From the NCBI GenBank assembly GCA_018830905.1, contig JAHJRM010000017.1, positions 1-24,992 on the forward strand: a stretch of DNA of 24,992 nucleotides, read 5' to 3'. This DNA is from Nanobdellota archaeon (lineage in GTDB: Archaea > Nanobdellota > Nanobdellia > Pacearchaeales > GW2011-AR1). This document shows, piece by piece, positions 4,391-5,348 of this stretch. The notes beneath the pieces are model-generated. The model ran no database searches and was not told the DNA's origin. It was given only the letters and a program-made list of their open reading frames with translations. A program made the translations under genes and the position numbers. Each line of letters starts with the position of its first letter. The stretch's first letter is position 1.

Positions 4391-4678
4391 ATGGAAAAAG
4401 ACATTGGAAAAATAACAAAGAACGATACGACAGATGTAATCTTAAGAGTTGACGATTTCGGTGGGCGAAAAGGTTTAACAATAAGGGAATTCGTCACAAG
4501 CGAAAGATACACTGGATTCACAAAGTCTGGCGTGAGAATACTGGCACCAGATTTTGATAAGTTCAAAGAAATGATTAACTCCATAACTGAAGAAGACTTA
4601 AAGGAAGAATCAAGCGCAGAACCTGAAGCAGAACCAGAAACTGTTTCACAAGGAAATGAAGAAATTCCAGATTACTAA
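4391..4678 (+). CDS. PC4/p15-like (YdbC-like) ssDNA-binding protein with an acidic tail
   Basis: VDDFGGRKGLTIREFV...GFTKSGVRI resembles the PC4 core (vxxFxGxxxvDIRefy...ptkKGIsL); CTTAAATA 29 nt upstream. Confidence 0.75.
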   Translation: MEKDIGKITKNDTTDVILRVDDFGGRKGLTIREFVTSERYTGFTKSGVRILAPDFDKFKEMINSITEEDLKEESSAEPEAEPETVSQGNEEIPDY

Positions 4679-4693
4679 TTAGAAATAAAAACC

Positions 4694-4701
4694 TTTAAAT
4701 A
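4694..4701 (+). promoter_or_regulatory. TATA box with an A-rich BRE, driving the structured RNA / methyltransferase leader
   Basis: AAAAACC-TTTAAATA; there is no ATG 29 nt downstream, and instead the first stem of the RNA starts at 4723. Confidence 0.65.
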
Positions 4702-4722
4702 CTCTAAAAAACTGAGACGAAT

Positions 4723-4807
4723 AATTGATTAGGAGGGGCGGAATAATCAGTTAAATGGATGGTCTTCGGATTACCCGTTTGCTGGCTTCGGACGCCCTCT
4801 TCTAATT
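4723..4807 (+). ncRNA. Candidate structured RNA (pseudoknot or two-state), family unknown
   Basis: Stem 4723-4731/4744-4752; cUUCGg-capped hairpin 4753-4780; 4728-4740 is complementary to 4793-4806; GC-rich relative to its flanks. Confidence 0.55.
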
Positions 4808-4818
4808 ATTTTTCTAAA

Positions 4819-5348
4819 ATGATTTACGAACCTTCTGAAGATTCTTTTCTAATTGAAAAATGTGTTAAACAGTTTGCCGAAGGTAAAAGCGTTCTCGATA
4901 TGGATACAGGCTTGGGCATCCTCGCCGAAGTTGCCCTCACCATCAGAGCAAAAAGCGTCCTCGCCGCAGACATAAATCCAGAAGCAGTTGCTAATTTAAA
5001 ACAAAAAGGGATTCCAACAAGACACTCAGATTTATTCTCAACCATCTCTGAAAAATTCGACCTAATCATCTTCAACACTCCATACCTACCAAAAACTAAA
5101 AACGAGGACGAAGAATCAGAAACAATAACAACCGGCGGAGCCAAAGGCCACGAATAATCCAAAGCTTCCTCCAAGAAGCAAAATTCCATCTAAACAAGGA
5201 TGGAAAAATTCTCCTTTTATTCAGCTCTCTAACAGGTAAAGAAGAAGTTGACAGAATCCTCCAAGAAAACAATTACAAATTCAGATGTCTTGAAACAAAA
5301 AAGCTATTCTTCGAAGAACTTTATGTGTACAGGCTTTCTGTTAATTAA
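4819..5348 (+). pseudogene. Frameshifted HemK2/N6AMT1(Mtq2)-like SAM methyltransferase
   Basis: MIYEPSEDSFL N-terminus; the frame stops at 5157 but another frame continues IIQSFLQEAKFHLNKDGKILLLFSSLTG...LFFEELYVYRLSVN* to 5348 (apparent 1-nt loss near 5154); motif I is DMDTGLG and NPPY is NTPY. Confidence 0.85.

Follow-up and report, generated by a model that had tools for sequence, protein, structure and literature searches.

The forward strand of the window, by which we mean the whole stretch of 24,992 nucleotides that was analysed, holds at 4723-4813 what we are confident is a stand-alone gene for a structured small RNA (sRNA), one member of a larger family. On balance, and with modest conviction, we favour the fuller reading that this is an independently transcribed sRNA gene of a new family, acting in trans, whose modules would dock a protein. 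The RNA belongs to a new family of orphan structured archaeal sRNAs. Its modularity recalls H/ACA sRNAs or sponge RNAs, and it is neither.

The genome that contains the window (hereafter G000) comprises 598 kb in 98 contigs, has 36% G+C and is about 89% complete. The RNA locus stands out as a G+C island, with 45% G+C versus about 29-33% in its flanks. Its minimum-free-energy fold is a single long hairpin that consists of a lower stem of 15 bp (P1), an internal loop of 6 x 7 nt, an upper stem (P2) and a cUUCGg cap. Folding of 4716-4818 yields -36.9 kcal/mol versus -22.2 +/- 3.3 kcal/mol in shuffles (z = -4.4), and none of 200 shuffles folded equally well. The elements of the locus are the following, with the basis of each assignment in brackets:

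4687-4701 (+): promoter, a BRE-like purine-rich stretch followed by a TATA box (sequence reading)
4694-4701 (+): TATA box TTTAAATA (sequence reading)
4723-4813 (+): predicted sRNA transcript with one module, about 90 nt (ends inferred from promoter spacing and T-run)
4726-4740 (+): 5' strand of P1, purine-rich (minimum-free-energy fold)
4741-4746 (+): 5' strand of the internal loop, GAAUAA (fold and column counts of 57 distinct sequences)
4747-4785 (+): P2, the upper stem, 4747-4764 with 4769-4785 (fold and alignment of homologues)
4765-4768 (+): apical UUCG of P2 (fold)
4786-4792 (+): 3' strand of the internal loop, CUUCGGA (fold and column counts)
4793-4808 (+): 3' strand of P1, pyrimidine-rich, with a bulged U at 4798 (fold)
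4809-4813 (+): run of five T, likely an archaeal terminator (sequence reading)
4819-5348 (+): frameshifted gene for a small-domain SAM methyltransferase (match to Pfam MTS)

Homologues were collected by BLASTN in 60 relatives, which showed that at least 14 genomes of the genus carry the core of the RNA (4733-4800), 72-98% identical. From a first alignment, with 15 sequences, a consensus structure of 26 pairs was derived, and compensatory changes occur in 14 of them. Two covariance models were used, R1 for the whole RNA and R2 at the level of the module. R1 assigns 96.1 bits (E 9e-26) to the locus in the window and finds a single copy of the RNA in G000. The resulting homologue set contains 57 distinct sequences from genomes and 34 further metagenome loci.

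The 57 distinct homologues uphold the fold. Standard pairs are found at 90.8% of the pair positions versus 70.7% in shuffles, and controls in which the pairing partner was slid by one to three columns reach 36-51%. Compensatory changes on both sides occur in 23 of the 26 base pairs; a look at covariation among homologues had been proposed in an initial annotation of this DNA, which had been made from the sequence alone. In P1 both sides change in some homologue at all 14 modelled pairs, and the pair that closes P1 is G-C in some sequences and covaries to A-U in others. In helices 2-4, where compensatory changes also occur, 85-100% of positions are paired. Many pairs are G-U, which on the other strand would be A-C mismatches, and this places the RNA on the plus strand.

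The initial annotation had described a promoter-driven structured RNA with the potential to form a pseudoknot or switch. All sequence elements that it listed are present, among them TTTAAATA at 4694-4701, CTTCGG at 4786-4791 and ATG at 4819, and so are the cUUCGg hairpin (4760-4773) and a local pairing of 9 bp between 4723-4731 and 4744-4752. Reading of the sequence also bears out that GGAGGGGCG is complementary to 4793-4802. The two alternative folds fared differently in the homologues: the long-range helix, in the form 4726-4740/4793-4808, is conserved, whereas the local hairpin is not, since it is paired at 45.6% of positions, no better than shuffles, and is specific to this genome. What had been taken for a pseudoknot pairing is the inner part of P1. 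Given that the local hairpin is not conserved there is no conserved switch either.

Transcription signals accompany the RNA throughout the family. Of the 38 loci that could be scored, 29 have a YTTAAAWA box whose start precedes the first paired base of P1 by 28-31 nt (mode 29), and in the homologous loci a purine-rich stretch comes before this box. At the other end, a run of at least four T begins within 10 nt past P1 in 36 of the 57 homologues; this oligo-T run likely serves as terminator. The spacing of the TATA box is constant across genera and, together with the T-run after the stem, sustains the description as a promoter-driven structured RNA. It predicts a start at about 4723-4725, which fits the start near 4723 that had been suggested. 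An own BRE/TATA, an oligo-T stop and a covarying structure are what a generic stand-alone archaeal sRNA displays, and all three are found here.

The genes around the RNA vary. Of 88 distinct loci at least 36 are followed by a gene on the opposite strand, and there is no consistent downstream gene across loci. Recurrent neighbours are the gene for aIF5B, a 95-aa ORF, a 98-aa ORF and an MFS transporter; a conserved neighbouring RNA-binding gene was not found among the loci. The aIF5B gene is located within 2.5 kb in 33 of the 88 loci, and within one family of the order (f1) the RNA is syntenic upstream of it, with a separate TATA box for aIF5B between the RNA and the aIF5B ATG. This syntenic place leaves some room for a local role. 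One genome has the RNA inside a tRNA/5S gene cluster; usually it is not beside 5S.

Two of the neighbouring ORFs deserve a brief description. The 95-aa ORF, which in the window occupies 4391-4678 (+), has an acidic tail and no match in Pfam; it immediately precedes the RNA in 22 loci. The conserved ORF of about 98 aa is divergent from the RNA in 26 of 88 loci (e.g. L025:1133-1429 and L027:1139-1432, both on the minus strand) and matches only the first 60 of the 302 positions of Pfam Diphthamide_syn. Judged from this partial match, it may be a stand-alone N-terminal Dph2 fragment or part of a split gene.

Behind the RNA the methyltransferase gene is found in just two of the 88 loci, those of G000 and of its 98%-identical sister G029. 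In both genomes its ATG is found 6-10 nt behind the stem. As had been annotated, the ATG at 4819 has no upstream TATA box of its own, and the gene is probably read through from the promoter of the RNA in these two genomes. In G029 the gene is whole and encodes 176 aa (L002:147-677). In G000 it is broken near 5154 (5150-5157) into two pieces in different frames, which are 80% and 72% identical to the G029 protein, and its motifs are altered, with GTGSG changed to DTGLG in the SAM-binding motif and NPPY changed to NTPY. The G000 copy would represent either a decaying gene or an assembly error.

These data bear on the reading of the RNA as a cis-acting 5' leader or riboswitch, SAM-responsive or other, that controls the downstream gene, the methyltransferase here and aIF5B elsewhere. 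The close ATG that lacks its own TATA box in G000 and G029 agrees with a leader, as does the same-strand aIF5B gene downstream in many loci of one family; tandem aptamers, moreover, are known among riboswitches. However, the methyltransferase is restricted to two loci and frameshifted in one of them, the next gene is on the opposite strand in many loci, aIF5B has its own TATA box, a T-run follows the stem, and neither a conserved alternative helix nor, at E <= 10, any Rfam riboswitch was found. The inconsistency of the downstream gene is not what a riboswitch shows. A leader function of any kind is thus very improbable. Since the methyltransferase occurs behind the RNA in G000 and G029 only and the next genes are variable, the more specific idea of a SAM methyltransferase leader fails. 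Of the two options offered initially, a leader or a stand-alone sRNA, it is the latter that stands. The position of the methyltransferase behind the RNA is incidental, and the gene is not part of the RNA family.

The distribution of the RNA was determined by means of R1 in 151 sampled genomes of the order, whose records carry the names Pacearchaeota, Woesearchaeota or Nanoarchaeota at NCBI. The RNA was identified in 24-25 of these, representing 12 of 84 genera and four of the nine sampled families. Five genomes that belong to other genera of the same family and are 93% complete or better gave no match. A further 150 genomes, from elsewhere in the phylum, yielded one weak match. A pattern scan of 185,579 species genomes gave 101 stretches, and all those that pass the covariance model are from DPANN archaea. 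To these come 34 environmental contigs that pass the model. As far as these searches reach, the family does not extend beyond a single order of DPANN archaea. Such a lineage-restricted and patchy distribution suggests an accessory RNA and argues against a universal housekeeping role.

Pattern matches outside the archaea were scrutinized and rejected. The bacterial ones all fail the covariance model. A 65-nt match that recurs in Bacteroidales (L051, L053, L059, L082, L096, L116, L121 and L124) lies inside a conserved coding gene and is due to chance; the gene looks like a mannose-6-phosphate isomerase. Three matches on viral contigs also fail the model, and a virus or plasmid origin was discarded.

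The most constrained part of the RNA is the internal loop, which in the family reads GRRNAA opposite CUUCGGA, with B as the fourth letter of the 5' strand by the column counts. Five positions are invariant in the 57 sequences, namely both A's and the next U (A29, A30 and U31) on the 5' side, and the C at the start and the G one before the end (C113 and G118) of the 3' strand; the remaining loop positions are mostly at least 90% conserved. About 11 near-invariant nucleotides are thereby gathered at one junction or loop. Rare variants of the 3' strand are CUUUGGA, CUUUUGA, CCUUGGA and UUUCGAA. These are compatible with an unbroken non-canonical helix where G opposite U or A opposite U takes the place of A opposite C, and also with a mini-arm of one C-G base pair, U-A in G001, that closes UUCG.

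The RNA is encoded at a single locus per genome, where one promoter is followed by one, two or three modules in tandem. The usual form is the single module. Three tandem modules are present in G041 and two in G160; other genomes add further cases, and arrays of two and three modules also occur in metagenomes. The loop is identical across modules. Stem lengths, in contrast, are free: P1 measures 4-17 bp overall, with 14-17 bp in single-module forms and 4-9 bp in arrays, and P2 varies between genomes from about 8 to about 20 bp. R2 finds only the single locus per genome, hence no copies of the module elsewhere in the genomes. One locus (L038) scores 39.6 bits with R1 and 46.4 bits with R2.

In three genomes of the same genus P2 contains an extra, nearly identical UUCG-capped hairpin (L026:169-282, L028:1501-1616 and L184:720-830), and it looks as if the small UUCG hairpin of P2 duplicates in place. 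The apparent duplication of UUCG hairpins inside P2 in some genomes is what a neutral or selfish hairpin element without a function of its own might display. Yet such an element is hard to reconcile with one locus per genome in a syntenic place, with an own promoter at constant distance, and with covarying stems around a loop that is invariant from family to family within the order. We regard it as very improbable.

The RNA does not correspond to a described class. Among the 4227 models of Rfam 15 none matches in the window at gathering score, none matches in 4600-4900 at E <= 10, SAM and other riboswitch families included, and none matches at the position of the RNA in 20 other member loci. 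The Rfam search that had been recommended thus detects no described family, and the SAM riboswitch suggested along with it is left without an aptamer. A full-text search of the literature found no description of the RNA. ARAGORN detects neither a tRNA nor a split tRNA, and a cloverleaf is lacking; over the whole window (1-24992) no tRNA is reported by ARAGORN or by Rfam at gathering score. Identity with 5S, SRP or RNase P RNA was rejected, as all three are encoded on other contigs of G000. Mimicry of rRNA or another stable RNA was rejected as well, given that R1 with filters off scores at most 12 bits in the LSU of G000 and G079 and in the 5S, SRP and RNase P loci of G000. Box C/D sRNAs were discarded because boxes C (RUGAUGA) and D (CUGA) are absent in the aligned members.

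The stable RNAs of G000 show peculiarities of their own. The SRP RNA match (G000:C55:2341-2602) ends at a contig end and scores 60 bits, below the gathering score of 96.5. The LSU rRNA match at G000:C39:12013-15583 comprises 3571 nt versus 2987 model positions, which suggests that the LSU rRNA carries an insertion or intron. A second, partial LSU rRNA match is located at G000:C42:5860-7973.

A ribozyme role had also been put forward, and it receives no support; there is no match to a ribozyme family. The broader proposal is a trans-acting RNA that is either an aptamer for a small molecule or ion or a self-cleaving ribozyme. Its appeal lies in the about 11 near-invariant nucleotides, a size comparable to the cores of small ribozymes and aptamers. 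It lacks, however, a match to any family and a link to any metabolic gene, and the essential letters of a hammerhead-type core are missing when the loop is read by eye. We consider it highly improbable.

A close architectural likeness is with archaeal H/ACA sRNAs, which are also encoded by independent sRNA genes, are built as hairpins with a large two-stranded internal loop and occur with one to three units in tandem. The one to three hairpin units per RNA, the two-stranded pocket of 6 + 7 nt and the location in a tRNA/5S cluster in one genome speak for an unusual H/ACA-like guide RNA, the loop strands of which would pair with an rRNA or tRNA target. Several features disagree. Single-module members have no ACA or ANA box 14-16 nt 3' of the top of the pocket, because that position falls inside the 14-17 bp of P1; the lower stem is too long for an H/ACA sRNA. 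The upper stem has no K-turn or K-loop; it is simply a helix, variable in length, that ends in a UUCG cap. In G000, a genome 89% complete, a search for a bipartite site complementary to both strands of the loop, which could serve as target, found none. Finally, unlike in H/ACA sRNAs, one and the same loop sequence recurs in every module and every species, and guides would have no use for identical loops within one RNA. A guide function appears very doubtful.

The loop was also compared with the kink-turns (K-turns) bound by L7Ae. The arrangement of a stem followed by GAA and NAA, opposite GGA and a stem, resembles on paper Kt-7 of the 23S rRNA of H. marismortui. With that K-turn it shares an asymmetric loop, rich in purines, that adjoins a G+C-rich stem, as well as the GA dinucleotides that neighbour P1 on either strand. 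Tandem G-A/A-G pairs beside P1 are conceivable. The RNA could then be an L7Ae-type K-turn RNA that acts as decoy or scaffold for L7Ae or a paralogue, which is a special case of the docking of a protein. Two registers were tried by hand on the column counts, and neither holds in all members. In one, position 1b is not consistently G (C in 22, G in 29 and U in 6 of the 57 sequences) and four extra nucleotides reside on the opposite, non-bulged strand. The other needs an A at the second loop purine, where 17 of the 57 sequences have G. Since the loop breaks the canonical K-turn rules, binding of L7Ae is not to be assumed, and we deem it unlikely that the bound protein is L7Ae-like.

The Hgc RNAs of Methanocaldococcus (HgcC, HgcE, HgcF and HgcG in Rfam) provide a further comparison. 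They likewise form G+C islands in an A+T-rich genome and are stable hairpin RNAs with their own promoter and an orphan function. The RNA described here differs in that it has no match to them in sequence or structure, belongs to a DPANN lineage and has a modular repeat architecture.

An invariant loop and inner stem, free helix lengths and a unit that multiplies lead us to read each module as a protein docking site. The module would be the functional unit, in which the GRRNAA/CUUCGGA loop and the four inner pairs of P1 form the site. RNAs with several modules would bind several copies of the docked protein, and the RNA would act as scaffold or decoy for it. From conservation patterns we place the chance that the RNA works by binding a protein a little short of even; the invariant loop equally fits binding of a small ligand or of another RNA. 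More tentative still is the proposal that the family is a new class of modular archaeal RNP RNA, of which one to three modules titrate or scaffold a lineage-specific DPANN protein.

A parallel for such titration is offered by bacterial sponge sRNAs of the CsrB/RsmZ type, in which one short conserved module is similarly repeated with a count that varies between species. There the module is a GGA hairpin loop, whereas here it is an internal loop, in an archaeal RNA. The comparison concerns a possible mode of action and not common descent, and the protein partner here is putative.

DPANN genomes measure about 0.5-0.9 Mb and have almost no room for non-essential DNA. Apart from rRNA, tRNA and the RNAs of RNase P and SRP, the non-coding RNAs of these archaea are hardly charted, and no counterparts of bacterial sponge RNAs or Y/6S-type RNAs are known among them. 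The present analysis shows that annotation as the leader of a SAM riboswitch type, however tempting, would be a mistake, and the covariance model with about 90 sequences is ready for an Rfam-type family. With its own strong promoter, a loop that is invariant over at least 12 genera and variable arrays, the RNA is a testable candidate for a lineage-specific RNA-protein system. If this is true, the modular RNA would be a functional counterpart of the bacterial sponge or Y/6S-type RNAs.
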